Source: Squalus acanthias (lineage: Eukaryota). Taken from it: a stretch of DNA of 64,000 nt. The notes under the pieces are model-generated. The model saw only the letters and a program-made list of their open reading frames with translations. It was not told the DNA's origin and made no database searches. Within the stretch, counting starts at the first letter, position 1, and each line of letters opens with the position of its first letter. The translations under genes and the position numbers were made by a program. Positions 3,601-59,520 of the stretch are shown one piece after another. The stretch is from the NCBI GenBank assembly GCA_030390025.1, contig CM059448.1, positions 17,298,001-17,362,000 on the forward strand. Direction: 5' to 3'.

Positions 3601-4275
3601 CATAACATAACATAAGAAATAGGAGCAGGAGTAGGCCATTCAGCCCTTCGAGCCTGCTCCACCATTCAATGAGATCATGGCTGATCTTCTGCCTCAACTC
3701 CATTCACCAGCCCCATCACCATATCCCTTGATGCCTTTACTAGTCAGAAATCTATCGACTTCTGTTTTGAATATACCCAGTGACTGAGCCTCCACAGCCC
3801 TCTGGGGTAGAGAATTCCAAAGATTCACCACCCTGTGTGTGAAGAAATGTCTTCTCATCTCAGTCCTGAATGGCCTACCCTTTATCCCGAGGCTGTGGCC
3901 CCTAGTTCTAGACTCCTCAGCCAAGGGAAACATTCTCCCAGCATCCACCCTATCAAGCCCTGTAATAATTTTGTATGCTTCAATGAGATCCCCTCTCATT
4001 CTTCTGAATTCAAGAGAATACAGGCCTAGTTTACACAATCTCTTCTCAAACGACAGTCCCGCCATCCCAGGAATCAATCTCGTGAACTTTCGTTGCACTC
4101 CCTCTATGGCAAGTATATCCTTCCTTAGGTAAGGAGACCAAAATTGTACACAGTACTCCAGGTGTGGTCTCGCCAAGGCCCTATATAATTGGAGCAAGAC
4201 TTCTTCACTCCTTTACTTAAATCCTCTTGTAATGAAGGCCAGCATACCATTTGCCCTCCTAATGGCTTGTGTATC
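3601..4275 (-). mobile_element. CR1-clade (HER1-like) LINE 3' fragment
   Basis: ORF 3694-4197 LYRALARPHLEYCVQFWSPY...LYSLEFRRMRGDLIEAYKI is a CR1 ORF2 C-terminus; 3' tail ends in TTATG repeats. Confidence 0.92.
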
Positions 4276-4293
4276 ACCATATATACTCTCCAC

Positions 4294-4403
4294 CAATGTT
4301 CCCTTGAAGCTGCGCAGACACGCAGCTCTCCAAACCGCGCGTGCATAGTATTTTGAATGGGCCGCACAGCCCCGCGCCCCCCAAAAAATTACCGGGAACA
4401 TTG
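4294..4403. mobile_element. hAT-type MITE, copy 1 (110 bp)
   Basis: TIR CAATGTTCCC...GGGAACATTG; 8-bp TSD CTCTCCAC/TTCTCCAC. Confidence 0.8.
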
Positions 4404-4644
4404 TTCTCCACCCCACCCAAAACCACGAGATTTCCTGGGAGAGGCGAAAAACCAGATTAAAAATCCCAGGCTGATGCAAACTAGAAGATCGATCGTGGAT
4501 CTCCTCATGTTTCACATCCAATGAAGCGTGGCCACTATTGTTATTGTAGGCAAACATTTGGACACAACAAGAGGTCACCGCATCAAATGAGACGAATGGC
4601 CAGTTAAATCCCTCAAATCCTGTGTTCAACAGAAAAACTTTGTA

Positions 4645-5175
4645 TCTCATGATTTTACATCTATCAATGTTAAACCTCATTTGCCATCTTTCTGCCCATC
4701 AAAGTAGCCTGTCCAGACCCTATCACTGGCTACTACACTGAATTTGATGTCCTCTGCAAACTTTGAGACTTTGAACAGACCATTCTCCACATCATTTACA
4801 AAGATTATAAACATCAGCCCCAACACCAACTCATTTGGCACTCCCAAATATCACCAGTCATTTAACCATGCATCAATCCAGCCTAATACTATGCTATATG
4901 TCCCATGGGCATGCACCTGATGAATCAGTCTGTATACGAGATGGTGTCAACTGTCTTCCTGAAATCCTCTGCCTCACTCTTGTCCTCCAGATCTGTAATC
5001 TCCCTAAAGAAATCGAGTAAATTGATCAGACATGACCTGCCCTTTCTGAACCTACCTAACTCCCTAATCAGACCATGTCCTTCCAGATGACCCATTATGC
5101 TATCCCTCAAAGTCTCAAACACTTTCCTCACAATCGAATGAAGGCTCACAGGTCTGCAATTATAAATTATCAATG
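4645..5175 (-). mobile_element. Degenerate CR1 LINE reverse-transcriptase fragments
   Basis: RPVSLHSIVRKVFE, FRKGRSCLINLLDFF and MRFNIDRCKIM remnants. Confidence 0.75.
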
Positions 5176-6697
5176 TTCCGAAACAGGTTACTGCACATTT
5201 TCTATAGGAGCCTGGAGCAACTAAGAAGAAAGGCTTGACTTTGGACAAGAGATCCAATACTGTTGCATCCAAAACATTTTTGCCTTTAAAACGGTTTCAA
5301 TGTCTTTATGGATTAGTTTAGGTTATTTTTCATTCCAACTCGCTAAAGACAGTGTCAGCTACCCAAAGGAACACACTTGTCAATGCAGACAATTAAAAAA
5401 AATATATTAGTTATACAATTGTAACAACATGCAGGGAGTCAACAAATAAAAGTATAGTAAACAGAATTTGTGACATTGCACTCTCAGCGTGCAGTATGAC
5501 TGGCCCTGGACAGAAACTTGAAGGTGTAGATCCTCTGAAACCTCTTTGTGGAGCCCAGTTTGAAAACCTATACACTATCAGAGGAGTTAAGATGTGTAAG
5601 ATGTTTGCAGCCAGATGTTTATCCCATCCATCTGTGCTGGATTCCAGCCCAATTCCCAGAGATGGAAGGACAATGCGGAGTCCACTGTACTACCAAGTTC
5701 CCTGAATCAGTTAATTTCATTTGTAAAAATATTACCCTCACACGCACCAAAAAAGTACACAGCATCAGTTCTGATGCCATACAGAAGATTCACAAATGTG
5801 AGAGAACAATAATTCATGCATATAGAAGGGAACAAGTGATTAATGAAGGCCTTTCTCAAGAAAAAAGATCTATGTAACACACTACTACTGGTGCAGTACT
5901 CGCTCTATTCTGCACAGCAACAATTCAGAAGAAATATTAATTAAAATCTCAATTTATGCAAATACTCACTTCTGATTATGTAAATATTGTATACTGCTTT
6001 GGAATGGGGCTGGGGAAAGATATATTTTTTAAACCACATATGCAGTCACTAGAATGATGGATGTGTGGTAGTAACCATCACATTTCAAGTGTGTGCGTAA
6101 TGTACAATTTAATTTTCACAAATCTGAAATATCACCTAAAGGAACAGAATACAGTATTCAAAAAGAAAACTTAAATAAGACACACCAAAATGTAATTTAA
6201 ATACAGCATACAACAAACTCAACATACATAGCCCACTACAAACTCATTTCTCATTTCAAACAAGATTTTAAAGTGGGTATTTCCCATCTTTCTTAGAAGC
6301 AGCTATTCATCGCCAGATTATTCTTAGATGCTGGCTAGAATTCACAGCAAATCACATAGGTTAATAGACTAAGAATTGAGCATATTAATTACCATCCTAC
6401 GTGCTGCTAAAGTAAAAATAAAAATCTACATTACCTCAATAGGGATATCATTAGGGGACAAAAGAATTAAACTCCCTCTAAAGCAGTGACTTGCAGATGT
6501 TAGGTAAGAAACAAACAAACAAATATTCAGATATCAGAAAGCGCACAATTTAGGGAGATGCGACATTAAAAAAGATGCACATACAATCTTTAAATTAAGT
6601 GCAGATTGTGCATCTGCTTAAGATGCAGATGTAGCTAGCAGCTGAATCATACACTGGAAAAATAATCTAGACTATAATCAATACTGTAACATTGAGG

Positions 6698-7269
6698 TAA
6701 AAACAGAAAATGCTGGAAATACTCAGCAGGTCAGGCAGCATCTGTGGAGAGAGAAACAGAGTTATCGTTTCAGGTTGATGACCTTTTATTGGAACTGGAA
6801 AAAGTTTTAGAGATGTAACAGATTTTAAGCAAGTGCAGGGGGCAGGGAAAGGGGGAAGAGGAGGAAAGAACAAAAGGGAAGGTCTGTGATAGGGTGGAAG
6901 GCAGGAGAGATTAAATGACAAAAAGGTATGATGGCACAAAGCAAAAGGAGATGGCAATGGGACAAGTTAAAGAAACAAAAGATGGGTCTAGAAAAGGTGT
7001 AAATGGGAATGGCAGAATCAACAGCTGCCATCTGAACAAATAGGGGCAGAGGTTATGGTCTGAAATTGTTGAACTCGATGTCGAGTCCGGAAGGCTGTAA
7101 AGTGCCTAATCGAAAGATGAGGTGCTGTTCCTCGAGCTTCGTTCGAACAGTGCAAGAGACCGAGGAAGAAGAGGCCAGAGTGGGAGTGGAGCGGAGAATT
7201 AAAGTGACAGGCGACTGGAAGCTCACGGTCACGCTTACAGACTGAACGGAGGTGTTCCGCAAAGCGGTC
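6698..7269 (-). mobile_element. 5'-truncated Penelope-like element (GIY-YIG endonuclease C-terminus plus pLTR, decayed hammerhead)
   Basis: Remnant reading frame ...KLEEQHLIFRLGTLQPSGLDIEFNNF*, typical of the end of a PLE GIY-YIG domain; 9-bp TSD ACATTGAGG at 6689-6697 and 7270-7278; mutated hammerhead at 6760-6796. Confidence 0.85.
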
Positions 7270-7496
7270 ACATTGAGGGGTTTTCCCCTAATTAATTAGT
7301 CACAGCTATTTTTCCATTACAATGCACTGGGAAATCTCAAAATACCAGTGTTATTCATCACTTTCCTTGTTTGGAAACTACAGTACCAGGTAAGATCAAA
7401 ATACTTCTCATTGTGAAGAAAATCTCCTGCACAACTTTCTCCCTCAAGGCGCTAACTCATACAGGAGTATGGCTTCACATGCACTCGAAGCTTTCA

Positions 7497-7623: not shown

Positions 7624-10235
7624 TTGCCAGCACCTCCATCAAATAGATATTCGTGCATGAGTCCAAACACCGAGTATTGGCAGACTAATCAGCAATGGGG
7701 AAAGGGTAAATCACAGCCAAGCCAGATACTGTCCTCACCAGACAGCCACATCCACCCTTTACAGGAAAGGCAACTGGAAGACAGTCTGGAGTTTGCTATA
7801 CCAGGCACTGCTTTTATCACTGGGCCATCATGGGAACCCCAGGAAATATCCAATTTGCATATTTCAAGTAACCCTCTTCGTACTGCTCAAGCCAGCTGTG
7901 GCATCCAGGTTTAAACATCTTTCCGCAGCATCATCGAATACCGTAATTGTGTTTATAAAGTTGGCTGAAGGAGCATTACCCTATTACAGTTGACTCGGGA
8001 TAAATGCATACCTGATCTAAGCACAATTCTGATCCAATCATAGAATTCCAATGTACCAAATCAACATCCATTCACCCAATATACAGAACTCCTGATCTAA
8101 GCATACAACGCTCCCCAAACTATTTAGATTTTCATTGCTCAGCACACTGAATGTGGTCAGTCCAGCAGTTGTCAGCCCCCTTTTGTATAGCATTACGTAT
8201 CCTAAAGTATTTTAATTTTAATTCTGCTACAGCGCAGGCTGGGGTAAATATTGCACTTTTCTTAATCAATCACAGAAATCCTCATCCAAGCGCAATTAGG
8301 ACCAAAGCAGAACATTTCTTGAAGTCGTTACAGAATTCAAACAGGAACTGGTTAAGTTCCTAAGTCAGCAAAGAGTAGAGGGTTATGACTTTGAGGTAGG
8401 AAGCTTTTTTAAAAAAAAAAATAATTTAAAATGAACAGATGGAGTCACAACAAAAGGAGCTGGATAACTGACTGACTGCAGGATGGGGTGAATGGCCTTT
8501 TATTGTTCTTTATATTAATGTTCTAATGGTTTGATCAGAATTTAATTGGACTTTTTTGGGCCAGTATCAGGTTTATCTGAAACATGAAATCCTACTGGCA
8601 GTAAACAATAAAATTTGGAAATGGTAAGCTTAAAAAACCTTCACACCGAGTTGTGAATAGACAGCCATCATATGATATAAATCTGGACTTGAAGCACTCA
8701 AAGAAAATCATGATTCTAGAAGTAACAGGGAATAGATGATACAGTGTACTTAATTCAAAGCTGCTTAATTCAAAATATCTGCTAATTCAATTTTTGCACA
8801 TTACATTCATACTTTGTAATGTTAATTATATTGTTTAATCCAAATTACTGGATAATTCATTTTTTAGTGCAAAAAACAACTTTGAATTATCAGGACCAGA
8901 CTGCACAGGTTTGGAGCTAAAGCAAGAGGTTGACTAAAATGGAGTGGACCCTGTACATGGACCAAAATGACAGATCAACTTAGATGGGCTAATATGGTAT
9001 TTTCTCATTCTTAATGGAACAGAAAAGTGTAGGAATGGTGCTGTTTGTAAATTCTGTATCATTTTACCCTATGGCTCCCTCCACAGTACAATCATCAAAT
9101 AAAATCAGTCACACTCGAACACACACGGGGATATATGTTTTATGCTACTTCAAAAGCCAGCATATGTAGAAAAGGGTATTATACATCATAAAGAAACAGT
9201 TAACATATAGGAAATGGGCAATTATATGGAGATTATATGTGCCTAATAGAAAAGTAATATGCATGAACATGGTACAACAACAGTATCTTTGACATGGAAG
9301 TAGTGCGCTGTATTCACTGGTGGAGCATTTTATTCAAGTGTATTTTTATGGAATTGTGGAAAGGATTAGACTTTCCCCATAGGATACCAAATTCCAGTGC
9401 ATTGAGTGGGAGTAGCTAGCCTAAATACAAAATTTGTCAACATGTCAGCATCAACTCTTGGCAAGGATCTTGAAAAAAGGCAAACTGTAAAACAATGGGT
9501 GGCGTAAGGAAATAACATTTGTTGCTTCCTACAGGCTGATTTGAGAGTTGAAACAAAGAAAAATTAGCTTATCCAATTGCCACATCTAATTTGCTGAAAA
9601 ATGCAAGAACCAAAGCAGTCGAATTTAATATTAACCTTTGTTTTTTTTTTTAAAAACTACATTTTGGTCTACGAGCAATCAAACTAAACAAGCCTTTAGC
9701 ACAAAATCAATTTCACCAAAGGCACATTCTCAGAAAGTAGGTTTTTTTCCTCCCAATTGGTTGACTTTACTCTGCCCCTGGTGTAAATGAATGCGCCATT
9801 GGAGAGTGTAAACGACAACAGGTTCAACTCTGCCTTTACTTATTGCACTTGCGTTGGACAAATATTGAACTCTGTTCAAGGAAACAAAAAAGTTGTATTA
9901 TTGTGAACTAAAAACTGAACTTAGGGGTCAGCCTTGGCTCAGTGGTAGCACTCTTGCCTCGGACTCAAAAGGTTGTGGATTCAAGCACCACTCCAGAGTC
10001 CTGAGCACATAAATTTCGGCTGACATTCCAGTGCAGTACTGGAGGAATGCTGTACTGTCCGAGGTGCCGTCTTTGGGATGCAACGTTAAATCGAGGCCCT
10101 GTCTGGCCCCTTAGATGGACATAAATCATCCAATGGCACTATTCAAAGTAGAGCAGGGAAGTTCTATTGGTGATAACAACAGAAAACGCTGGAAAAACTC
10201 AGCAGGCCAGGCAGCATCCGAGGAGAGAGAAACAG

Positions 10236-10272
10236 AGTTAACGTTTCAGGTCGAAGACCTTTCGTCAGAACT
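10236..10272 (-). ncRNA. Minimal type I hammerhead ribozyme motif (inverted copy)
   Basis: Exact reverse complement of 10475-10511. Confidence 0.82.
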
Positions 10273-10474
10273 GGAAAAAAAAGCAGGAAATGGAATAGAT
10301 TTTAAAGCAGGTTTAGGGGCGGGGAATGGGATGAAAGAAGATATCTCTTAATGTCTCTCAATCTCTCCTGCTTTCTATCCTATCACTGACCTTCCCTTTT
10401 GTTCCTTCATCCCCTCCCCCATTTCCCCGCCCCTAAATCTGCTTTAAAATCTATTCCATTTCCTGCTTTTTTCC

Positions 10475-10511
10475 AGTTCTGACGAAAGGTCTTCGACCTG
10501 AAACGTTAACT
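10475..10511 (+). ncRNA. Minimal type I hammerhead ribozyme motif
   Basis: AGTT-CTGACGA-A-AGGTC ttc GACCT-GAAA-CG-TT-AACT: helix I AGTT/AACT, CUGANGA and GAAA boxes, 5-bp helix II, palindromic helix III AACGTT. Confidence 0.82.
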
Positions 10512-12032
10512 CTGTTTCTCTCTCCATGGATGCTGCCTGGCCTGCTGAATTTTTCCAGCGTTTTCTGTTGTTATTTCGGATTTCCAGCATCCGCAGTATT
10601 TTGCTATTCAAGTTCTATTGGTGTCCTGACCAACATTTATCCCTCAACCAACACCACTAAAACAGATTATCTGGTCATTTCTCTTATTGCTGTTTGTGGG
10701 AACTTGTGCATAAACTGGCTGCCACGTTTCCCTATATTAAAACAGTGACTACACTTCAAAAGTACTTAATTGGCTGTGAAGCGCTTTGGGATGTCCTGAG
10801 GTGATGAAAGGCGCAAAATGGATGATCTTTCTTTCTAAATAACTTTTCATTATGAGGAGCCAATTCCTTCCAGTGGTTAAACAAGTAAATCCAGTGTGAA
10901 AGCAATTCAGATTAGAAGTAATGAGGCAAAGACTTTCTTGTTGAAGGGACTTCAGGCCTTAGTGTGCTCTTCCATTGTAGGTCTGCACAGGGCTATGATC
11001 TGGTTCAAGAATTTGAGCTTTACAAAAGGTCACATCATATTATTTCTCCACAACAGATTGAGCCAGTCACAAACAAACGAATGAAGTGACCATTTAAATC
11101 AAGGACAAACTAAGACACAATTGAAAATGAACTTTCAGTCAGGAAGTAGCTACATTTAACAGCTACTAACAGAGTTTAAATTCAGCAAAGTTAGTAGTTA
11201 AATGATTAGCAAGCTCTTTTTCTACATATATTTTATTTACACACTTTGCTTGAGTTAATAAACAAAGTGAAAAAGAATAGAGAAAATTCAGATTAGCAAT
11301 GCTCAAAAGGCAAGAAGACACTGACCTTCAAGGAACACATTTCCAAACCAACCAGCAAAAAATCAGATGCTGTCTTGCTGAAGGCTTGTTTATAATGCAA
11401 GCTACATCTTGGGACACTGGCTTAAGAGCATTGTTACTGTGTACAGTGGCCAAGACTAATTGGCTATCGTACATGCAGAATGTACAATCACAGTGATGTC
11501 AACAGATGTCATGACACACAAAACGTCTAGATCACTATAGTGAGTTATATCATGATGGTAGTGTGCATAGGAGGATATCATGCTGTTGCGTGATGACATC
11601 AGCGAAAGTGTTCCAAAATCACACTGTTGCTAGAGAAGCACTTTGTGGGCAGAGTTAGACCAGGCATTAAGGCCCAGTGAAAAACAGGCCTTCCTGGCTG
11701 CAGGTCGAACAAAATCCAACAGTTTTACCTTCAACTGCCACTGGCTATGGGAGATAAATGGGAACCGGTGGCCAAAGCACCTAGAGAGAGCAACAATTAC
11801 AGTAAGAATTCTGCCTCACTCTGGTGACAACGTAGTTCAATGGTAGTGCTGGCATAGTTAGCGATTACAAAGAAACCAAGCATATTTCAAAGCAGGGAGT
11901 ATAGTAAATTGCAACTCCAGGAAATTACTACTCAACTGAGGGGAAACATGCATAAAGTGGTGTAGGGGCTCCATTAGTGGCAACAGATTTCACACATTAA
12001 CTTTCTGTGATAGTGTGATCTCTTATATGGTG

Positions 12033-12201
12033 TAAAAACAGAAAATGCTGGAGATACTCAGCAAATCAGGCAGCATCTGTGAAGAGAGAAACAGAGTTTA
12101 CGTTAACTCAGTTTCGCTCTTCACAGATGCTGCCTGACCTGTTGAGTATCTCCAGCATTTTCTGTTTTTATTTCAGATTTCCAGCATCTGCAGTATTTTC
12201 T
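12033..12201 (+). mobile_element. Short Penelope-like fold-back insertion, family A
   Basis: 138-bp spacerless imperfect palindrome 12033-12170 centred on ACGT (12100-12103); tail 12171-12201; TSD TCTTATATGGTG (12021-12032) / TCTTATATAGTG (12202-12213). Confidence 0.85.
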
Positions 12202-12887
12202 TCTTATATAGTGTATGCGGGCTTCAGAAAGACCCAAAATTCCTCAAAATCTGACCTCCATTCAAAAAGGTTAATTTTTGTACTCTTGATATTGATGAAA
12301 GAATGATCCAGAACCAGGACTACGGTTGGATCTACACCAGCAGATTCAGGCACAATAGTTGATCAAATTCAGCCCATTTCATATACCAAATCCATTTTCT
12401 GTTCTGCCCATAACCAGCTGCTGCCTTCACTTGAATTTAATTATATGCATGGATAAAATAAATATAAAATAAATTCTGCTGTTAAACTACCCAATGATAA
12501 TAACCAGAGCTGTGGTAGCTCATTGCAGATTTGACATCTTGAGCCAGGATATTTGGCGCTATCACAACACAACCTTGGTTTCAAACCACAGCATACACAC
12601 CACATCAAAGATAACAATAATTTGCATCACCCTAAAGTGCTTTGTGCTCCTCCTCCCAAGCTGGAAGGCTGTAACATTTCAAGGGAGAAGGGGAAGATGA
12701 TGTGCAAATTGTGTCGGACACCAACTGGATGAAACTGCAGACGAGGAGGCAAACATTTCAAGTTTATGAAATAATCTTGATCTTTGGGTTTACAGTCATA
12801 TAAAATATTGTAAATAATTAAAAATAGAGGTAAGTTAGGAATGCAAAAACATTCTTGGTGTAAAAGATGACAAAAACATTACATGCA

Positions 12888-19228: not shown

Positions 19229-21613
19229 AATATATTAGTCTACTAAGCTGGAGCTGTATCCCTTTAAAGTAACAAAGTCGAATTGTGGTTAAGTAAACAC
19301 AAACTCAGGCCACAGTTTAATTGTTATTTGGTCAGGGTACTTTGCAAACTGCAAAGTATTTATCAGTTTCAGCATCAGGTGAAAGTACCCTGGATAAAGA
19401 AAATGGCTCCCATCCCTTCTTTCTTCCAAAAACAGATTACTTTGCATCAGTAATGTATGCATGCACCAAAATACAGCTTTTAATGTATTAGCAAATATCC
19501 AGTGGTGTATTATTTCTCTGCTAATATGATGTGTCTATTTAAGGCGACAAAGTATAATTACTGTTACTGGGCGAGAGTTAGTACAAAGGTTAATTAAGAG
19601 ACTACAAATATTTTGGCTCTGGTATTTTGCATTCTTGAAGAATTGCTTGATTTTTTTTTGAAGTGAGGGCTACACAGAAATTTGGCTCTAATACTAGATG
19701 TGACAAGAAGTATGCACTAGACGTACTGTTTTTAGAATAGCTGTTTACAACAAGTGAGAGAAAGCACTCTTTTATAAACTCTGGAACATTATAGGCGTAA
19801 GTGTGTGTCCCATTAAGCTACAAAATCTATTTGCTATTAAGTAAGCATTGGGATTATAGAAGTCAATTTAAAAGCGGTTATTGTTGGGCAAGTTCATTAA
19901 TTGAAAGACTGCAGATATCCTGGCTCTAGAATTGTGCATTTCTGGGGAGCTCATCACCCTTCTTTTCAAAGTCCAACACAGAATGTGGAAGGCGATAGAT
20001 AGGAAATGTGCAGTTTACATTACCAAGTATGATGATTCTACTTCAAAACATGAGTGTAAACGGGAGTGTCAAAACAGCAGCAGAAGCAAGACAAAAATGA
20101 CTGTCTCAATAGGTGAGAAATACAGTTATGAAAACCACTGTGGAACTGTACCCCAGGAGCACGGAGTTTTTAAAACAAATTTTACAGAAGTATTTTTGAA
20201 ATACTGAAATGGTGAATCAGTCATTCTGAAGACAATAGGAAGGAAGAACTATAAAAGAGTAAAAGATAGGATTTTCTAACACTTTTGCTTGGTCAGTCAC
20301 TGAGTGGCAAAGCTGCCCAAAGCCCGCTGAGAAGGTCAGTCACACTTTAGTGACAGGCCCATCACAAAAGTTACCAGACGCAATTCATACAGACAAATAT
20401 AAAATAGAGTTTATCCAAATACAGGGACACACAGTTACTAAATCTAATCCCGGAAGAAAAATGCAATTTGGTTAATACTCACATGAGGAATGCAACAAAG
20501 TAAAGGAACTAATAATTAAGTGCTTTGAACCATTTTTGAAAGTTTAGAACATTCCTGTGTTCATAGCTGGCAAGAGATATGCCTCTTTAGTTCCACTAGA
20601 GGCATTCCCTACTTAAAAGTAGGAAGGCTGCCTCAGCTAGAAGAAAGCCAAACTGTCACAGCAGGAATTACTGCCAGGCCCAATTCAAGCATCAGAATTT
20701 CCCATTACCTTCTAATACTACACAAATCTGCATCAGAAATACAACATTGTCCACAGATTGTCGGGCTTTTTAGTTGGGTAATGGGGATGGGGAGAAGAGA
20801 AGCTGAGAATAAAGTTATGAATCAACACAACAACTCTCATCGGGTACACTTATTTTAAAAAAGAACTCAAGTCCCTCTTCATGGGCTGGAAAGCCGAAAA
20901 AACACAACCCCAGGAAACTTGAATTCAATCATCATGGTAACTCGGAACATATTGTTCTGTGTCAGATTCCAATGCTTACGTTTTTCTTTGATTTTTATCA
21001 TCTTATTCCCTCCTCCCTCTTTAGATTTCCCTGGGACAGTCAGCCACCAGAAATGCATGAAAGAACCCAAAGGTTACGTCTTTCCTGCAGAAAGGCACCT
21101 CGTTTCTGCCCAACACCGAGATCAGTGCATAGAATTTTTGGGAGAAGCCGACATCTTCCTATAAAGCAGTGCAGCACATTGGGGCACCAATATATTCACC
21201 AAATCACCCCGTTTCCACCAGGCTAAGTTGTTACAAGGTTTATGCAGTATTTTTGGAATGTAGCAAGGTAACATGGTGGAAATTCAGTCATTACTCCATT
21301 AACACTTTGAAACATTCTTAAAGAATATTACTTTTAATTGAAGAGGAGCAGAATCAATCCTGCCCTGCAGAAGAAAACCTCACTCAACTGATCACATAAT
21401 GACATTGACTGAATGTGAAAAATCCCAGATCAACTCCACACTCCACCAGGTGAAGGATGGAGCATGGCGAGAATAGTGAAAATGTAACCAAAGGTCAAGG
21501 GGGAAAAAAAAGGGAAATTATGCTTTTTTACACGACCAAACATTTATTTCCTAATGTAAACACAAGACCACAATAACCACTTTATCACCAGTACAAAGGA
21601 AACATTAACATAC

Positions 21614-21955
21614 CTATTTGGTTTTTTACTGACTGTCCCTTCTCCACCTCTTCGGCCACTTTTTCCTTGGAGAAAGTCATTACTGTGACATTGTCTTTCT
21701 CCGCATCTTCATCACTTCTGTCATCATCTTGATCATCCTCCTCCTCCTCCTCCTCTTCTTCGCCACTATCATCACTTTCTCCAATATCATCCATGCCTTC
21801 TGTGAATTTCTCAAAGTCTTTGATTTTTTGGAAGTCAAAATTACATTCTTTCATCTTATTACTCAAAGGTTCTGTGTTGTTCTCCTCTTCCTCGTCATCT
21901 TCTTCATCCTCAGTGCTTTCCATGTCCTCAGCTGCTTCTTCCTCATCATCATCAT
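21614..21955 (-). CDS. AATF: AATF coding exon 3 (acidic region)
   Basis: Acceptor TGTTAG; D/E-rich stretch, then TEGMDD...VMTFSKEKVAEEVEKGQSVKNQI; donor GTATGT; 342 nt. Confidence 0.92.
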
Positions 21956-22196
21956 CTAACAATTATGGGCATAAAATGTTAAAAGTTTAAAACAGGTTTC
22001 TTAAGACATCATGCTTTTGCCTGCTTGCTTAGCAAATATTTTACACAAATTTTACGTACATATTGAAAGGATATGTAAAATAATTCAGAATTCCCCATCT
22101 AAATACTTATACCACATGACCTATTGGATTTCCCTTCAGCTTTAAGGTTTTGCTAAAACTGGAGATGAAACTACAACCCTGCAACACCTTAAGCTG

Positions 22197-22375
22197 GCAT
22201 AGAAACATAGAAACTAGGAGCAGGAGTAGGCCATTCGGCCCGTCGAGCCTGCTCCACCATTCAATACGATCATGGCTGATCATCCAAATCCAGTACCCTG
22301 TCCCTGCTTTCTCACACAGAATCCCCATCGAGCCTGCACCGACACATATCCCACCCTATCCCCGTAACCCCACTC
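22197..22375 (-). mobile_element. HE1-like SINE 3' fragment
   Basis: Close reverse complement of ~1843-1990; ends in TTTCTATG repeats. Confidence 0.82.
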
Positions 22376-25849: not shown

Positions 25850-26392
25850 GCTGACAATCCAGCGCAATATTGAGGGAGAGTGGCACTGCTGGAGGTGCCG
25901 TCTTTCAGATGGGACATTAAAAAACTGCGTTTCCGTCTGCCCTCTCAGGTGGACATAAAAAATGCCATGGCACCAATGTTCCCCTAATTATTTTTTGGGC
26001 CGCGCGGCCCCTTTAACGAGCTGTGCGGCCCATTCAAACTTCCGCGCATGCGCGGTTTTTTGCATCATGAAGCCGGCTCACCGGCTGCGCGGGACCTCGA
26101 GACAGCTGCGCGGCCACGCTGCTTAAAGGGAACTTTGCATGCCACTATTGGAAGAAAAGCCAGGAGGTTCTCTGTGTCCTGGCTAATTATTTATCCCTCG
26201 ACCAACACAACTAGAGCAGTTAAATTGGTCATTATTCTCACTGCTGTTTGTGGGACCTTGCTGCGCATAAATTTGCTGCCGTGTTTCCCCACATTACAAC
26301 AGTGACTACACCAAAAGTAATTAATTGGCTACAAAGCACTTTGGGCCTCCTGAGGACGCGAAGGAACTGTATAAATGCAAGTTCTTTCTTTT
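25850..26392 (+). mobile_element. Deu-domain SINE, 5'-truncated
   Basis: Matches the 9927-10835 copy from the core to the TATAAATGCAAG tail. Confidence 0.78.
25974..26137. mobile_element. hAT-type MITE, copy 3 (164 bp), inside a Deu-SINE
   Basis: TIR CAATGTTCCC...GGGAACTTTG; TSD CATGGCAC/CATGCCAC; host SINE is contiguous once it is removed. Confidence 0.8.
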
Positions 26393-26724
26393 AGTGGAAT
26401 ATAGGGAAAAGCCCCAAAACTGAACTTTATGCAAACATGGAAATAAAATAAAAATTAACAGTATATATCGCCACAACTATAAAATTAAGAAACTATCTTC
26501 TTGAATGAACACTAAAATAAATCTATAATTTTGCACCTCTGTTAGGCTTTAACTGCAAACAATCCACTGACATGTCTAGTATTGGCACAAAGATACAGTT
26601 CTAACGTGTTTTTTTTTTTTTTACAGAAAATCAGATAAGATTAGGTCACCCTCGAGACAACTGATACTGAGTATACTGGAAGGTGGCATGAAGGAAAAAT
26701 TATCCAATCATTTCAATTAAAGGA

Positions 26725-27135
26725 AAGAACTAACAATTATATAGCATCTTTCGCATCCTCAGATGTCCCAAAGTGCTTCCCCGCCAATTTTTTTCCCGAT
26801 GTGTAGTCACTTGTTATATAGGCAAATGCAGCCGCCAATTTGTGCACAGCACAGTCCCGCAAGTAGCAATGAGATTATTGACCAGTTAATCTGTTTTGGT
26901 TATATTCGTTGAAGGGTGAATGTTGGACACCAGGAAGATTCCCATGCTTTTCTTTGAAAAATGCGATGGGATCATTTATGTTAACTAAGACACGGTCTTG
27001 GCTTAATGTCTGATTCAAAATACTGGCACCTCCGACAATGCAGCACTCCCTCAGTATTACATTGAGGTGTCAAACTTAGATTATGTACTCAAGTCCCTGG
27101 TGCGAGGGCTTGAACTCAGGGAAAAGAGCACCATC
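26725..27135 (-). mobile_element. Deu-domain SINE, diverged
   Basis: Reverse-complement match to the same family (GGCACCTCCGACAATGCAGCACTCCCTCAGT). Confidence 0.72.
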
Positions 27136-31486: not shown

Positions 31487-32517
31487 TTTATTAAAAAGTC
31501 ACAAATTTATTCAACATGTTTTTCATTTATACAGTGAATGGTCTAATATGCAACGGAGGTCACAGAAGCTTAGGCCTATTATTATGACAAAAAATGATAT
31601 CATGAGGAATTCTATACTGTATAAAGAAAAAAAAGTAGCAGCTAGGGACTGCATATTTGACCATGTAGTAAAATTGTTTAAATATTTGACCTTTCGTTTC
31701 TGTAAGACACAAAAATAAAATCCTGTATGAATCTATATGGGCATTATTAACAATATGAATGATTTCTATGAGAGAGCTAAAAATTAGCAGAAAGTATATT
31801 TTTAACACTCTCTTTCTGAACACTTTCTCCAGTGGATGGTGCAGTGCACCTACAGTAATTGTGCTATGACTTATCTATTTGGCACCTTTCTAGTTTGTTT
31901 CTCCACTTTTGTAAACATACGCAAAAAAAAAACACTTTGTACAAACTGGAGCTGTGAACCACAACTCCAGCAAATCTTTTGTACATTTTTTTGGAAACAA
32001 AAAAAAAGTTTGGTTACTTGATGCCCGTTTGTTCAATTCAGATCAAGAGGTTCTAAAATGTTTTCTAAAACATTAAACTCCTGAATTAAATATAATACGT
32101 AAACAGTAGACTCTTTCAGTTCATTCATGAGCTTTTTTTTTTGTTGTTCAGCTTTGTGTAGGTAGAGTAGTTTGCGTTGAAGTCTTGAGGGCTCCCAAAC
32201 GCCTTTGTCTTTTCGAGGTCATTCTGAAATTTGTTCCTTTTGGGTTTTAGGATCCCAGCTTTTGTCGCCCTGCTTAAAACGTTGTTGTTGTGTTAGCTCG
32301 GTGCAACTTTCTCCTTGTTTGAAGTTTTTAAAAAATTGTTATTTTAATATTTTTTTCGCGACGAGTTTTGTTGAAGATCTCGCCTTGTTCTTGCTGTCCG
32401 GGCAACGCTATTGTCTTTGGGGTTGGGATGGAGCAGAGAGAGAGAGAGAGAGAGGGATACATTGTCAATATTGTCCCTTGACGTGAGTTTCGGCAATTTC
32501 CGCCAAGTCGGAAGTCG
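31487..32517 (-). other. LHX1: Probable LHX1 3' UTR with candidate poly(A) signals
   Basis: A/U-rich region after the stop; AATAAA on the minus strand at 31506-31511 and 31487-31492. The true end cannot be fixed from sequence alone. Confidence 0.55.
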
Positions 32518-32912
32518 TTACCAAACGGCAGCCTCGTTCATTTCCGGAGGCGGATGTGACAAATGGCTGGTGTATCCCCCGTTGGTGAGGGAGAAGGACG
32601 GGCTGGGACCCGGCCCGAACACATCCGCCGCCATCGAGTGCATTGACGGTCCTGTTAGACCCGGCTCTGGGCTCGGAGAGTCCCCGTGAGAGTGAGAGAT
32701 CATGTCGGTGAACCTCTGGCTGTCGCCTGGTCCCGGCAGGTTGCTGGGGTGATGGCCGGGCAGTGGGTGCTCGAGTCCGCCGAGTGGGGTCGCCCCAGGC
32801 CCGGAGGAGGGCACAAAACCCAGATCCACTGGAGTCTGCGCCTGAGACGAGGGGGGACCTTGAGGAAAGAAATCATAATTGCTTCCAGGACCATAATATT
32901 CAGTCTGATAAT
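32518..32912 (-). CDS. LHX1: LIM homeobox 1, coding exon 5 (C-terminal region to stop)
   Basis: Acceptor TTCCCAG; [31 protein letters not shown]...[11 protein letters not shown]...[32 protein letters not shown] and EMNEAAVW are LHX1-type, and adjacency to AATF supports LHX1 over LHX5. Exons sum to 1233 nt (410 aa). Confidence 0.95.
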
Positions 32913-35900
32913 CTGGGAAGGAAAAAAAAGGGAGAAAATAAATATAAATGCACGTTATCCTTATGCATACACATTGCAGTTTCAAGAAGTCAAATACAAA
33001 TAAGAGTAGGGACGAATGAACTTTGCAATCAGATAAACTAGGTTTTGTTGGAGGGTTTCAGCAATGCGTTGTTCAAAACCAAAACGCGAGCCAAGTGAAA
33101 TCAAAATAGGAACACAACGAATTAAAACTCACAGTAACAAAGTTTGCAGTTAATTCCTAACCTGGCCTTGCACTCTGAAAACTTTAGAATTGAAATCGGT
33201 GACTTTAGTTTATCTCCTTTGCACGTTGGAGAACTGATAAAGGGTAGGCACCTCCTAAACATGAATTGACCTTTAAAGGCACCAAACTCAAACCTGGTTA
33301 CTCCCCTCCCAAGACACACACACAGTTACAATGTGGTCCATAGATTCAACCTTCAACATAAAGCCAGGCGCATTCGTTCCCAAATTATTGCATTTATTGT
33401 TATTCTTTATAAGTTACTCGAGTTGATCTGCTGTCACTATGAAATCTGCGATCAGAAACTAAGCCTTCACACATCTCTGGGAACCACAGAGGCCGACATA
33501 CTGCTCTCTAGCAATGTGAAATAAAACGGGGTTGTTGTACATAGGGTGGGGAGATAAAGTGGTAATGATCCTTTCTGGTCCAATGAGACCCAATCATAGG
33601 GCATGTCTCTGGTGCGAGGTTTAAGACAAAATAAAACATTTACACAATTCTAGGCGTTTTAATTTTTTAGTAGCCAAAACAAACATTTATGAAATTCTTT
33701 CAGAGACAATAAAATCAGAACATTTTTTTGTGACACAGTGAATTATTTTCTCTTTTAGCTAATGAGCCTTACATTCGAGCATCCCCAAACTCCGTTGATC
33801 AGAATTACTCTGTGAATTCACAGTGTGACGCGCAACGGGCAAGGCAAACAGCAATCAAATGTTTTTTTGTTCTAATTTATGCCCCATTTGTAAATCAGAC
33901 TGATGTCTTGGGGTTTTTTTTTTTGCTCAAGATTTCATCTCTGTAAGTGAAAAATGAAGCAGATGTGATTGCAAACAAACGCTTGGGAAACTATTCTGTG
34001 TTATTAATCCCTATCACACACAAGGTCTGGCGCAGCAGGGTCCCACTTTTTGAATAATGCTCACTCATTTTACACAAACGCAACCGCTCTCACAAAACCA
34101 CCACTCAACTAGTCATTGTCGAGCACTCGGCAAATAACAGCCTGCCATCCCACAACCTTAGTCTGAAAGATCTTGTAAAATAGTTTATTATTCGGAGCTG
34201 AGGTTTAAGTCGTGCACTCGCACTTAGTTACCTAGTTACCAGATTCAGTGAAGTGTTCTGAAAACAGTCTGCTACCTAAATGCTCCACAGGTATTAATGC
34301 AAATTACTCCCAATATGCATTATTTAAAAATCCGAGTATTAAAACCAATGGTTCATGCACCAACATAATTTACACCCCCAAATCTTAATAGGGTCTATAT
34401 ATTTTTTTAAATTAACACGGGGTTCAGTGTTAAATGTGCAGTCAGTTCTTTTGAAGGCTTTTCTGAAATTCATCTGGATCTGTTTTTCCCTGGTAAAATG
34501 TATTTGAATTTAAACGCCGTTACAGTACTCTGTATCCGACGCGTTATTTTTCAATTCAGCCTGAATGCATGCTAATTTACATAAGTAAATGAAATGGAGA
34601 ACGTGCATACTAAAACTGGCCGCTACGAGTAAGCTAAGCACGGATGAAAATGATGCCGGCACTTTCCAATCATCCAATAGTTGTATAGAAAACTTCAATA
34701 AATGCGATCATATCCGACCTCATTTTAATTTCAAATCAGTCCTGTTTCAATGTAAGATCGAATATGGGGAAATCCCTGCCAGCTCACCCGCTTATCGCCG
34801 CGTGTAAAATATCTTTTAAAATGTTTTCTTTTAAAAGGTACTTGGGAGACGTTGGATCAGCAATTAGCTGCCCAGCACAATCCAATGTAAATGAAGTTAA
34901 AAAAATAAACTTACTCCGCTTATGGTTCATAATTAATCAATAATACAGCAAAGCGCGGTCATTCTCTTTTTCATATGAAACATACATCACACCTTTCTTT
35001 CGAAATGCATGGGAACGATGCTAAACTACGATTTAAAGCCAAAAGTTTTTATTTGGGTGGGGGAGGGGGGAGGGGAGGGGGTTCCAGCATTCAAGGGTTG
35101 ATGAAGTTTAAGCTTCGTGCTATGGTTTTGTTAAGAGCCTCCCACTTATGCTGTACATTCACGCCATATTAATTAACCCCATCCCCTCCTGTGTGCTTAT
35201 TGTCTTCCCCGTGTCCTCGCCATCAAATAACAGCGAGTCTGCTGTTTACAATCCACTGGAAGCTCCGCCAGCCTGTCACTAAACATACACATGGAAACTT
35301 TGTTACAAAAAAAAGTTCACAAATGTTAACCCAGTTGATTGTACAGTGGAATTGTACCGGATAGCCCTTTCCGATATCTCGGTATGTATTATAGAAAAAT
35401 AATAAAAATCTATAACGCGCTACACTCATTCTAACACACTTTTCTTTTAAAATTAAGTCAATGGTATAAATTACAAGATAACATTGATCCAGATATAAAC
35501 AATCCCAGGCCCTATTCTAACTGCGTGCTGGTCTGAATAGATATGTGCTATTGTAACTAAAGCGTTTTCTGTTACATCAAGTAAGCATTTGATTATTCAT
35601 AATTATAAGTAAATAAAACGGAAGCACATGTTTCACATCACAGTGTCCACGTTACACAAAGATAGTGAAATGTTTATAATACGAAGTCAAAACGGGTAAA
35701 CGTTGAATACATAATGTACAGCAATATAATCAAGTAAAGCCTACCCTTATACTTTTTTTTTGGAAAAAAAAAGTTTTAAAAAAATTACCTTAACTTTATG
35801 GCACTCCCTATTTAGGCTTGAAACCTGGTTTACTTGCATTCTGTTAAACTGCAAATCGGAAAATAAAACCCACAATTGTAAGCAACGTTAACGTTAGTTA

Positions 35901-36449
35901 GTTTTAATAGGAAGACTGAAAACATTTAAGCTACATTTAAGTATCTTTTTAAGAACCCAGTGTAGATGTCAGTAGTAAACATAACCCTGTGGCAATGCAC
36001 CATTATGCTATTCCCTGGCTCTTTTTATACTGGCGAATATACACATATGTTGTATTATTTCAGTTCCTTTTGTATATTCCTATGGTTATTTTAGGCGGGC
36101 CATTTATTTTAGACGCTACTTATTGGGGTTCCCTGTTTCTCAGTCGGTTCTTGTAAGCGGGAAACACTGCTTAGTTGATTCTGCATATGAAACTGATCTG
36201 ACATTGACAAGTAGATCGTTGAGGGAAAAGAGATACTTTAGCCTTAAAATAGCACGGAGACTCTCTTCGTGTAATCAGTGATTGAATAAGTCAATAATAA
36301 GTCAATAAATGGCTAACTTCATACAGTATTTCAATTGTCCGTCAATACATGACTGTAAAACTGAATTTGCAGCGTCCTTCTCATTAAATAAGTAATCAGT
36401 TTTTAAGCACATCCTGGGGAGTGTTTAACAGAAATGAATTGGGACTTAC

Positions 36450-36615
36450 CCCCGTAGTAATTGAAAGGGCCGTTTCCCATCATGTCAGCCCCGTCGAGGC
36501 GATCTCCCAGGGGTCTCATCCGTCTGGGGCTGCGGAAAAACGCGTGTCTACGAGCCCCTAAAGCACTCAGCTGCTTCATCCGCCTCTCCTTAGACCTCCT
36601 GTTCTGGAACCAGAC
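36450..36615 (-). CDS. LHX1: LIM homeobox 1, coding exon 4 (homeodomain helix 3)
   Basis: Acceptor CCCCAG; [42 protein letters not shown]...YYG; donor GTAAGT; 166 nt. Confidence 0.96.
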
Positions 36616-38515
36616 CTGGGGCACAAAGCAGCCGCAAGATTCATTTTATTTCGACAATCCTGAGTTAATATTAAACCATACATACAACGCAAACAATACC
36701 CTTCCCAGCCCCATAATTCAGAATTGAGGTAAACCTGCAGCACCTCTTTAAAAAAAGCTTGGCTTTAATTCTACACTGCAACATTAATCTCAAACCAGTC
36801 TTGAAACACAGAATGCTAATATTGACACCTTCCTGTTTCATAAGCTGAAAGAAAACCGGAAGGCTTCCCCAGAATTAAATGCTAAACCCAATTTACAACA
36901 GTCATGCCAAGCATTTCAACGATATCCCCTTGATTCCAGACTCTTAGGATAACACACAGCCAATGGACCTGCTATATTTTAAAATGCAATTGCAAGTTGA
37001 ATGAAAACTCGACTTCCTTCTTTTAATATATATTCAAATGCAGAATGGTTCCGTTATTTGTTTTATGGTGGAAATATGCTTGAAATGTCACATCTTGGAA
37101 AAAGTGGCTCTTAAATGAAAAGCAAGAAAGCGTTCTTCGCCAGTTTACCTTTTAAAACTCACTTTTTCCTTTTGAAAAAGGTAACGGACTCATTGAACAA
37201 CATCGTTCAATTCTTAAGTTTCTTATTGAAATAAAGTCAGACATTTAATAATCGCAAAATTGCACTGAATGAAGTAAAATTAATGCTTAAAATCAGGTTG
37301 CACAGAAGTGCCGACAAATTGAAAAATATTTGCATGAATACAATTTGCTTTGTAAGACAGGTGAAGGGTTCTGAAGCTAATTCCAATTGCCCTGCAAGAT
37401 TATAAGTAATTATTATCCTCTGGGGCTGGTGTGTTCTATATTTAACCTGGGCCGACTAAAGTGACGGCCTTACCCTTTCAGTAACCCACCTCAGGATTCT
37501 CGGCCCCTTTATTCCACAATTAGAATAAATGTAGAAAATGTTGCCTTTTTACATGCCCTATGTGGTGTTATTGTCCCCATTACAACAGAATCGTGTTTCT
37601 ACCTTCGTTGCCTCAGAGCTGGGGTCCTCTGCACCCACCCAGGGCTGGAGGTATCGCGTATGTAATGTTTAGCAATAATCTCTTACTCACACAACTGCCA
37701 GTTTAATTCGGCGGCTCTCTCCTCCCGCTCTTGCGGTCGTTTTTTTTTATCAGCTGCCCTAACATTTAACCCGGGTATTCCTGTTCATTTTCTCTGAGCT
37801 GTTTACACCTCGGGTTGCTTCCCTAAGCAGGGTGCTCTCGGATAGTTTAACCCGTCTCTGTACCGGATTTGCTGGTGCAGCTATTGTCTTGTACACTTGT
37901 TTCTGGGTTGACGATGGCTTGTGCCGCTCTGACCATATCACCATTACATTTGGCCTGCGTTATTGTCTCTATTTATATTTGCTTGGACGCGGCTTGACCT
38001 CTTGGGTGCAGTCTTCTGGGTTTTCCTACCTTCATTACTCTCACATTTGACCTGATTAAAACGGATTGTTTACCCACCTCCTCTTGCTTGGCTTTGCGTT
38101 CTATACTTTTGACGCTTTCTCCCGGCTTAAACTTTTCCCCGCTGAGGTGTAGCCATCCCGATAATCCAGCTTTTTGTGTAATAAAGCGCTCTGAGGATTT
38201 ATCCCGGGTCAATGCTATCCATTACCTGTGCCCGTTGGTTCGCCATTTCTAGTACGACCCCCCTCCCCCACTGCCACCTTTAGTCTGCCCTCCCCGAGTT
38301 AACTGTTTTTTTTATACTCTATCCCAATTTCTAAATCTCTCATTTGTACAACCCTCTTTTGCTTGGTTTCCTGAAGCATTTATCTCCATTTTATCCCCCC
38401 ACTCAGAGCACTTCTCTGCAAGTTTAATATTGAGCCTAAATCACTGCCTCCCCCTGCCTCCATGTCGCCCATGTTTTGTTACATTGGAGCCCTCAGTTCT
38501 AAATGTCTCTCTTAC

Positions 38516-38793
38516 CTGTATAACCCTCATGTTTAGCCCGGTTTCCTGAGCTAGCTGCTCTCGGATGTGCCTGGTGGGTTTGGGAGTGGCTGCAAATGCC
38601 GCTTTGAGAGTTTCCAGCTGTTTTGCTTTGATGGTTGTGCGGGGACCCCGGCGCTTGGCTCCCAGATTCTGTTCCTCGTTCTCGTTATTGGCAGTCTCTT
38701 TATCTGAAATATTGGCGCTTTCTGAGTCTTTTGTGTCATCTTGTAAATGATCTTGAGAATCCGGTGACAAACTTTGATCACTACATGCCGTTA
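38516..38793 (-). CDS. LHX1: LIM homeobox 1, coding exon 3 (linker and most of the homeodomain)
   Basis: Acceptor TGTACAG; [15 protein letters not shown]...[47 protein letters not shown]; donor GTAAGA; 278 nt. Confidence 0.96.
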
Positions 38794-54300: not shown

Positions 54301-55284
54301 CCTATATGTGCTCAGTTATCTATCCTCTCTTGCCTTCATGCAGCACACACAGTTTCCTGGTGACAGTGCTTTGAGCTTGTGGAGTTAAAACCAAAGGTTT
54401 GAGTTTATCACTCCATACACACCGAGTGCCAGTCACTGAGTGTTCTCACGACTGCTCGCCCAAGCAGCACAGAAACAAGGCCTAATCCCAATGCCTGCCT
54501 TGGGGTCAGTCAGTGCCTTCAAGGGTATATACGACACAAACGCCAGGATTCACTCGCTGCTTCGGTAATGTACCGCGGGGCAGCCCCACGGAGCCAGTAA
54601 CCGTGGAGTTAAATCGCATCTCAGGATGATCTTTACAAACCTAAAATCACCCAATAGCTGCAAGGGTAAACAGCACCATAGGGTGACTCTCGCAAACCAC
54701 ACAGTTCCCCAATAGCCAGAGGGGCACTCGGTATCCCGGAGACCCAAGAGTCCATCATAAATTCAAATATCATGTGGGGAACATCCACTTTAACCCTCCG
54801 AAGTCTTCAATATGAACCTTGCATCTCTACCTTTACAATAACATATTTCTTATGTCTGACATATAGCACCATGGTGCCGTTCTTCTTCCTAATAAAATAT
54901 TTTAATCTCGGTGCTTTTCTCATTTATAATTGTTTATTTTCTACTTTCGTTACTCACCTTTATACAATACCTCTATCTCCTCGTTCAATTTTTACCCCAA
55001 TCACACCCCTCCCTAAAAAACCCCACCTATCTTTCGGCAAAGAAAATGCTCTCTGACACAGAGGATAGTTCTGTGTAGGCTTACAAATTAAATTTATCAC
55101 AAAATCCAGAACCAGATTACAAATGTACCCACTTACGTAACTCCCAACAACTTCCCTCTCCTTTCACAAACAGTATAATGCACCCCCAAAAAGCTGCTGA
55201 ACATTCGGGGCTATGGGTACATCCTCCTCCCATACTTTGCAATCCTCACCTGGGCAGCTGACTCCCGACTCTCTCTGGAACAAT

Positions 55285-55504
55285 AATGAGAAGTCGCACA
55301 ACACCAGGTTATAGTCCAACAGTTTTATTTGAAATCATAAGCTTTCGGAACTTACGTGGCCCCTTCCCGGTTCACCTGAGGAAGGGGCCACGTAAGCTCC
55401 GAAAGCTTGTGATTTCAAATAAAACTGTTGGACTATAACCTGGTGTTGTGCGACTTCTCATTTTTGTCCACCCCAGTCCAACACCGGCATCTCCGCATCA
55501 TGAC
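55285..55504 (+). mobile_element. Penelope-like fold-back insertion, family B
   Basis: 83-bp inverted arms 55285-55367 / 55380-55462 (2 mismatches seen), 12-nt spacer, tail 55463-55504, perfect 12-bp TSD CTCTGGAACAAT at 55273-55284 and 55505-55516. PLE assignment rests on architecture and the hammerhead, since there is no ORF. Confidence 0.82.
55372..55412 (+). ncRNA. Minimal type I hammerhead ribozyme motif
   Basis: TCAC-CTGAGGA-A-GGGGC cacgtaa GCTCC-GAAA-GC-TT-GTGA: helix I TCAC/GTGA, intact boxes, 5-bp helix II with one G-U, palindromic helix III AAGCTT. Confidence 0.82.
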
Positions 55505-56199
55505 CTCTGGAACAATGCAAGAGGCCTCAATGTAAACAAAGTGCACATTGCAGGAGTCAGCCTACCATTTTTAAGATTGTAATTCCCAAGAGTCACCACG
55601 TGATGCTCTTTCCTGATCTCCAGGATCATTGTTCAGCATCCCACTCTTCGAGCATCATTGTTGAATGGCCCACTGACTGGGAGTCTTATTGATTGGCTTG
55701 TTTCCTGGGGAGAAGAGGGGGAAAGTAAAAATAATTAAGAGGAAGGAGAGAAAAGTAAAGAAGCACAGAGAGGAAAAGAGGAGCGAGAGAGAGAGACGTA
55801 CACAGAAACAATAGTAAAGAAGATTGACAGACAGAGAGAGAAACAACAGTGAAGAGAGGGAGGATTTTTTTTTGCAGACTTATCAGAACAAATATCCTTT
55901 GCTACAGGAGTGTGAGGAACCATGAGAACTCTTTAGTGGAGCTCAGTCTCCTGAAGAATTGAAAAGGTGGGACCCAGTTCTAAAATATTTAAGAGCCACT
56001 GCTTTAAGACAACCCTAATGTGCACATGTACAGGAGTCTGTCTCTGAACTTTTATTTCAGATGGAGATTGGGAGAAGGCAGAGAGATGAGAGCAGCTGAC
56101 TGAAAATCCATGCTTTTGGCAAGTGAGGAAGAAATAGCAGGTGGCTGCAGGGGCCACTGAGAGATTTTTCTCTTCAGTTTTTAATTTAATTGCACTTGA

Positions 56200-59244: not shown

Positions 59245-59520
59245 GCACCCTCTCAGGTGGATGTAAAAGATCCCATGGCACCATTTTGAAGAATCCCCGG
59301 TGTCCTGGCCAATATTTATCCCTCAACCAACATCACTAAAGCAAATTATTTGGTCATTGTCACATTGCTGTTTGTGGGAGCTTGCTGTGCACAAATTGGC
59401 TGCCACGTTTCCTACATTACAACAGTGATTACATTTTAAAAGTACTTAATTGACTGTAAAGCACTTTGCGATGTCCTGAGGTCGTGAAAGGCGCTATATA
59501 AATGCAAGTCTTTTTTCTTT
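59245..59520 (+). mobile_element. Deu-domain SINE, 3' half
   Basis: CTCTCAGGTGGATGTAAAAGATCCCATGGCAC...GGCGCTATATAAATGCAAGTC. Confidence 0.8.

Follow-up and report, generated by a model that had tools for sequence, protein, structure and literature searches.

What kind of element left a short insertion with inverted arms, a hammerhead motif and a one-sided tail in the genome of Squalus acanthias, and how did its inverted arrangement arise? The insertion, which we call family B, spans 55273-55516 of the window, i.e., the whole stretch of 64,000 nucleotides that was analysed, and is made up of a TSD, an inverted arm, a centre, a direct arm, a tail and a second TSD, as follows:

55273-55284: left TSD, 12 bp, exact repeat of 55505-55516
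55285-55367, minus strand: inverted arm, 83 bp, a copy of the pLTR 3' end that lacks the tail and is truncated further
55368-55371: junction bases (CGGT, 4 nt), whose allotment to the direct copy needs a consensus
55380-55462, plus strand: direct arm, 83 bp, the part duplicated in the inverted copy
55463-55504, plus strand: tail, 42 nt, one-sided, between the right arm and the right TSD
55505-55516: right TSD, 12 bp, exact repeat of 55273-55284

The two 12-mers form the sole exact pair lying 200-260 bp apart in the whole 64-kb window. The arms are reverse complements over 83 bp with 2 mismatches, both transitions (98% identity), and are separated by a centre of 12 nt (55368-55379). The TSD, arms, tail and hammerhead described in the initial annotation were all borne out, the TSD being exact and the arms differing at the 2 positions mentioned. 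There is no ORF in the insertion. Just to its right, two 27-nt direct repeats with 74% identity lie 29 bp apart (55619-55674), probably by chance or through an old local duplication.

This anatomy agrees with that of EN+ PLEs (Penelope-type elements) in several respects. The target duplication, which is of variable length in these elements, is 12 bp and exact; the 83-bp arm corresponds to the inverted 5'-truncated pLTR copy at the 5' end; the tail is found at one end only, its 42 nt slightly exceeding the usual 30-40 bp; and the hammerhead lies within the pLTR. Tails of 30-40 bp and inverted 5'-truncated copies are given as a general PLE layout, also in clades without hammerheads, in PMC8557442, and inverted pLTRs with short extensions serve as routine marks in curation (PMC8969392). 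An inverted pLTR, a 31-bp one-sided tail, TSDs of 8-10 bp and junction palindromes are described in the passages of PMC3846280 compared here. In particular, Pen2a_Av and its relatives, as presented there and in PMC8557442, share with family B a head-to-head inverted pLTR that is shorter than the direct one, a one-end tail, a TSD around the insert, a junction palindrome and an ATG near the tail end. Compared with those elements, family B has no ORF, no second direct pLTR, a 12-bp TSD (8-10 bp in the rotifer examples) and a 42-nt tail. Its plus-strand ATG (55500-55502) is followed by two bases before the tail ends, has 29 open in-frame codons on its upstream side, and is possibly the start codon of the parent ORF; in other PLEs the pLTR and tail overlap the ORF start, according to the same part of PMC3846280.

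The second component of the insertion is a ribozyme motif with the following parts:

55372-55412, plus strand: type I minimal hammerhead, by descriptor match and published minimal-hammerhead consensus
55372-55375/55409-55412, plus strand: helix I, 4 bp
55376-55382, plus strand: core CUGAGGA, followed by an extra A at 55383
55384-55388/55396-55400, plus strand: helix II, 5 bp, one of them G-U
55401-55404, plus strand: GAAA
55404-55407, plus strand: palindromic helix III, the letters from GAAA to the cut being GAAA, GC and UU
55408/55409, plus strand: predicted cut, after CUU

The motif contains CUGANGA, GAAA and UH in type I order together with helices I and II, and it also has the extra base after A9 (55383), G10.1-C11.1 (within 55384-55400) and the palindromic 15.2-16.2 (55405-55406). 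The cut predicted in the initial annotation is correctly placed, and its helix III, quoted as the 6-mer AAGCTT, had to be shortened: helix III proper is the 4-nt AGCU (A15.1-G-C-U16.1), which pairs only between two molecules. The A and U that flank it in the 6-mer are, in standard hammerhead numbering, core A14 and the cleavage-site base U17. The numbering used here agrees with that of PMC4209133 in the parts compared, and the motif fits the minimal-hammerhead consensus shown in Fig. S3 of that paper. A hammerhead descriptor gave 3 matches in the window, i.e., the family B motif and both arms of a second inverted element (10159-10623, see below), while 100 block-shuffled windows gave a mean of 0.02 matches (one match in 2 of the 100, three in none). 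A stricter, published-style pattern matched the window once, at the family B motif, which was reached by 1 of 100 shuffles. Chance does not account for the hammerhead found in family B. Taken alone, the 41-nt motif has a fold stability typical of its shuffles (z -0.14), and its centroid structure is the hammerhead fold. The family B motif does not match the curated Rfam hammerhead model, and a scan of the window at the Rfam gathering score returned no hammerhead; minimal hammerhead variants are defined by a descriptor, not by the Rfam model, in the passage of PMC4209133 that introduces them. Around the element, 11 Rfam matches were obtained at E up to 10, all below gathering and none a hammerhead. 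They are mostly microRNA models that fit the hairpin, and we rejected them as structure-only matches.

Metazoan PLE minimal type I hammerheads, as far as PMC4209133 was compared, resemble the family B motif in their short helix I, missing loop 3, NUH triplet (CUU), AU-rich 3' flank and occurrence as several unrelated families within one genome. PLE repeats are described there as having an additional base behind CUGANGA (consensus CUGANGAH), G10.1-C11.1 and the palindromic 15.2-16.2, and the paper also reports many divergent families per genome and opposite-strand pairs 100-700 bp apart. The GC-UU ending is found in the Chrysemys and Philodina rows of that paper and a 4-bp helix I, as in family B, in the Petromyzon row. 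Family B itself is not among the rows of Fig. S3 compared, and no cartilaginous fish is among those rows; unlike the minimal hammerheads treated in the parts compared, the family B hammerhead is overlapped by its own antisense arm. None of these traits is new: the layout, an extra base following CUGANGA, a palindromic helix III and numerous sequence-divergent hammerhead families in a single genome have all been published (PMC4209133, PMC3846280 and PMC8557442).

Long near-perfect inverted arms flanked by a TSD are also what a MITE or foldback element would present, and Rfam sees only a hairpin in this element. We consider it very improbable that family B is such an element with an incidental hammerhead match. 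The 42-nt one-sided tail separates the right arm from the TSD, so that the inverted repeats do not abut the TSD at both ends; the hammerhead match is beyond chance; and the same layout occurs in a second family of the window (family A) that is tied to a GIY-YIG ORF. The features of family A are as follows:

10159-10623, plus strand: inverted copy with a 14-bp TSD and a 35-nt tail, both of its arms containing a full hammerhead
12021-12213, plus strand: palindromic copy with a tail of about 31 nt and a 12-bp TSD with one mismatch
6689-7278, minus strand: single copy, 5'-truncated and tail-less, with a 9-bp TSD and a decayed hammerhead core
7062-7269, minus strand: frameshifted C-terminal GIY-YIG fragment within copy 6689-7278

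Among these three copies, 10159-10623 is inserted into a dispersed repeat, further copies of which lie near 25890-26390, 26710-26980, 49850-50270 and 59250-59520. The GIY-YIG end of copy 6689-7278 showed 71% identity to a gene model of Heptranchias perlo and 70% to one of Leucoraja erinacea (two of four candidates), both of which have Pfam GIY-YIG matches below the curated cut-off. Only the GIY-YIG ends of these models were used, since chimeric annotation seems to account for the RT match of the Leucoraja model and for the N-terminal portion of the Heptranchias model. With the Heptranchias region as query, 8 proteins were retrieved among 100 candidates, and RVT_1 is annotated in 6 of the 8; a named relative among them combines RVT_1, GIY-YIG and the CX2-5CxxC linker of Neptune/Nematis PLEs. 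Since the GIY-YIG end of copy 6689-7278 leads on in this way to RT+GIY-YIG ORFs, family A can be classed by sequence as a PLE, with a link to the Neptune/Nematis type. In a tblastn comparison of four PLE-type proteins with the window, the fragment at 7062-7269 was the sole match.

Family B is built like family A, as had been claimed, and is unrelated to it in sequence outside the hammerhead core: in local and global alignments of the hammerhead-to-end region, the spacer and the tail, 99 to 896 of 1000 shuffles reached the observed scores, and a global alignment of the hammerhead alone was mildly above shuffles (31 of 1000 reached the score). The differences between the two hammerheads had been read as natural covariation, which was overstated; because the two motifs are unalignable and each was selected by a pattern that demands pairing, comparing them is no test of covariation. 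The proposed link to an autonomous RT+GIY-YIG element holds for family A, and for family B no ORF link was found. In blastn within the window, only the family B element itself rose above noise, and a 23-nt family B pattern had no match in the bacterial and archaeal genomes scanned or in plasmids and phages. The frame in phase with the tail ATG gave no protein match at E up to 1 among 2 candidates; a search of 1.84 billion representatives gave 2 matches, both to long repeat proteins with no significant stretch, which were rejected as summed-repeat artefacts. Of the 178 stop-to-stop ORFs of at least 70 aa, 47 (40 from 48-63 kb and 7 from 3.7-7.3 kb) were compared with Pfam, which gave 4 weak matches below the cut-off, none of them RT or GIY-YIG. 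Elsewhere in the window, the decayed end of a CR1/L2-type LINE ORF2 (3485-5296, minus strand) was recognised from its translation, with no Pfam match, and pieces related to the 3' end of a CR1/L2-type LINE lie near 1480-2020 and 22200-22370.

The architecture and the hammerhead type of this one copy, which has no ORF link, would by analogy place family B among the PLEs, and we consider it very probably a PLE-type pLTR insertion. Most likely, it is an ordinary short Penelope-type leftover whose end was inserted twice, head to head, and which carries a hammerhead. A single retrotransposition product of a PLE family with a head-to-head second copy explains the locus best, and we hold this explanation with high confidence. 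The donor RNA may have been either a full element or a non-autonomous pLTR/retrozyme RNA. Non-LTR retrozymes, which are tied to pLTRs in a study that includes one chondrichthyan genome (bioRxiv 10.64898/2026.07.22.740005, in the part compared), resemble family B in being short, non-coding, PLE-pLTR-related sequences with a type I hammerhead. According to the same part, they are direct tandem repeats with a hammerhead per unit; family B has one complete motif in an inverted arrangement, and no tandem family B copy, i.e., no direct tandem unit of the retrozyme kind, was found in the window.

The surroundings of the insertion raise the question of whether the host makes use of it. The genes recognised nearby are as follows:

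about 32500-42130, minus strand: LIM-homeobox gene, with two LIM exons near 42026-42127 and 39629-39724
38441-39001, minus strand: interval with the homeodomain exon of this gene
32518-33057, minus strand: interval with the last exon of this gene

This gene resembles LHX1. An acidic coding exon on the minus strand (21585-21962) resembles AATF, which is the usual neighbour of LHX1. The family B element lies about 13 kb upstream of the LIM-homeobox gene, its 83-bp hairpin can form on either strand, and microRNA models match it below threshold (best 52 bits, compared with a gathering score of 98). Co-option by the host, as a source of hairpin RNA or as a regulatory element of this neighbouring developmental gene, nevertheless appears extremely unlikely; the microRNA scores reflect the hairpin only, and the near-identical arms suggest a young insertion.

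Accepting family B as a PLE product, we next consider how a tail-bearing and a tail-less copy could come to lie head to head. The non-inverted copy 6689-7278 and both family A inverted arms share one tail-less end point, and since this copy is not inverted, the proximal site would serve as an independent start site. In vitro experiments with a PLE protein show nicking and extension of both strands from two RT starts that bound the tail within a stem-loop, on uncleaved RNA (PMC11167929). Because of this behaviour and the shared tail-less end in family A, we lean, with slightly better than even confidence, towards a two-primer route for the family B insertion. In a single retrotransposition event, the last approximately 137 nt of the pLTR would have been copied together with a second, shorter copy in head-to-head orientation. 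The RT/GIY-YIG protein would nick both target strands 12 bp apart, which would give rise to the TSD. One nick would prime cDNA at a distal RT start, presumably the tail end (55504), yielding the tail-bearing direct copy, and the other would prime at a proximal start 42 nt upstream (55462/55463), yielding the tail-less inverted copy; this proximal position is suggested by analogy with the starts reported in PMC11167929, as far as compared, and with the family A copies. Both cDNAs would read through the uncleaved hammerhead and terminate within its helices or slightly 5' of them; each attached to a different strand, they would finally be joined end to end. The hammerhead would simply have been carried along from the parent pLTR; there, its activity would require dimer formation through the AGCU palindrome.

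Poseidon of Anolis carolinensis (PAc), as described in the parts of PMC11167929 compared, is a useful reference for this scheme, and it shares with family B two RT starts bounding the tail (presumed in family B), a stem-loop in the start region and an upstream hammerhead that is read through uncleaved. The PAc ORF begins inside the hammerhead, whereas in family B the sole nearby candidate ATG is at the tail end; in addition, the relatives of family A carry the CX2-5CxxC linker of Neptune/Nematis, which sets them against PAc.

The two-primer route has to be weighed against a rival in which a single nucleic acid primes itself or folds back at a palindrome of the junction; this rival keeps the PLE identity and replaces the two primings. 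Self-priming at palindromes is favoured over two primers in the corresponding passage of PMC3846280, palindromes are present at all 3 inverted junctions (8 bp at 10339-10346, helix III at 12100-12103 and 4 bp at 55367-55370), and the family B arms are 98% identical. However, fold-back alone leaves unexplained the exact termination of inverted arms at the tail boundary, where the non-inverted copy also ends. Unduplicated bases separate the arms, 12 in family B and about 64 in copy 10159-10623, and the 4-bp palindrome of family B is weak, as five separate ones occur within 55360-55415. We regard fold-back as possible, at clearly lower probability, and as a fair rival to the two-primer route. Microhomology at the tail-less junction amounts to 4 of 5 bases in family B; it is not general, because none of note was found in the two family A copies.

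The positions of the junctions relative to the hammerhead provide further information. It had been claimed that the inversion breakpoint of family B falls in the ribozyme, with the direct copy beginning at helix I. The first part is correct for the inverted arm, which ends at 55380, i.e., at G7 inside the CUGAGGA box, and which holds the hammerhead 3' part only, from G7 on, so that there is no complete core on the minus strand. The start of the direct copy is less precise than claimed; it lies within 55367-55372, with 4-5 nt of uncertainty from the CGGT bases. A junction within the hammerhead was found in 2 of the 3 inverted copies of the window, namely family B and one family A copy (12021-12213), a near-perfect palindrome of 138 bp that is centred on the helix III palindrome (12101/12102; helix III at 12100-12103). 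The third (10159-10623) has its junction at the 8-bp palindrome, well before the hammerhead: helix I is about 65 nt further downstream in the inverted arm and about 135 nt in the direct copy. With so few copies and a motif 50-100 nt from the start site, junctions in the hammerhead are a lead and no more; catalysis would not be needed to explain them if the RT stalled on meeting the first stable helices or if self-complementary stretches annealed.

Cleavage by the hammerhead could in principle set the breakpoints, and the palindrome centre of copy 12021-12213, which is 3 nt 5' of the cut site, is compatible with one of its arms ending at the cut. In family B, cleavage did not set the breakpoints, since both arms cross the cut site and extend 29 nt and 37-41 nt 5' of it. 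Copy 10159-10623 holds the whole hammerhead in both arms, and in the anole PLE uncleaved RNA is the dominant substrate, with no reads ending at the cut in the data compared (PMC11167929). As an explanation of the breakpoints, cleavage is therefore highly unlikely. A different role was also considered, in which the palindromic hammerhead pairs two PLE RNAs for a dimeric protein, and two RTs converge and stop there, so that junctions cluster in the hammerhead. Besides the 2 of 3 junctions in the motif, one of them centred on the helix III palindrome, this idea draws on minimal hammerheads being dimer-only, poor cleavers (no cleavage as monomers and low cleavage as dimers in the assays compared in PMC4209133) and on the predicted dimeric state of the PLE protein (PMC11167929, same part). 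It appears unlikely for several reasons: in the third copy, about 65-135 nt separate the junction from the downstream helix I; Naiad/Chlamys PLEs make the same inverted and tailed insertions without canonical hammerheads (PMC8557442, in the section compared); the full pLTR is dispensable in vitro and catalytic mutants insert normally (PMC11167929, in the experiments compared); nearest-neighbour modelling gives the double-hammerhead fold -18.1 kcal/mol, which is less favourable than the -20.6 of two monomers and the -27.3 of the dimer minimum; and the ends of short insertions will frequently lie close to a motif that is only 50-100 nt away from the start site. We also give little credence to the full form of the proposal, in which the main role of the dimer-only hammerhead would be RNA-RNA pairing rather than nuclease activity, holding two templates on a dimeric RT/endonuclease; priming at both target nicks would send two RTs towards the contact, with junctions piling up there, and a stem between tail and spacer, of similar shape in the unalignable families, would mark the two RT starts.

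As a ribozyme, the family B copy is most likely silent. Folding predictions suggest this: in a read-through transcript of the whole element, all bases from G7 on are engaged with the inverted arm in the 83-bp hairpin. Helices I and II have a pair probability of 0.0 in that transcript, and 0.13-0.16 in an RNA starting at 55368, in the loop. A different structure is shared by the two families, a stem between the spacer and the tail:

55426-55483, plus strand: family B tail-spacer stem, 9 bp, perfect, formed by spacer 55426-55434 with tail 55475-55483
10528-10592: family A tail-spacer stem, 8 bp
12124-12190: family A tail-spacer stem, 9 bp

In both families the stem encloses the arm/tail junction, and for family B stems as long were found in 13 of 2000 shuffles; the corresponding counts for family A were 18 and 2 of 2000, all of these tests being post hoc. 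Between the stems of the two family A copies there is one G-C to A-U exchange, and the family B tail has a second possible partner at 55440-55448. The global fold z-scores of the post-hammerhead regions are weak (-1.0, -1.7 and -1.5), and only the targeted stem test was significant. The stem resembles the start-site stem-loop of PAc in both families and, judged from these predictions, would be more likely than any new feature of the hammerhead to represent a functional structure common to the two families.

In conclusion, family B is one more truncated PLE copy with a published layout, and its value is mainly as data. The formation of inverted pLTRs in PLEs and the role of their weak hammerheads are both stated as open in the parts of PMC8557442 and PMC11167929 compared, and no published mapping of inversion junctions relative to the hammerhead was found in our search of mainly open-access literature. 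If short copies of families A and B are numerous in the genome, the positions of their junctions relative to the hammerhead and the two starts could separate the two-primer, fold-back and hammerhead-dimer models.
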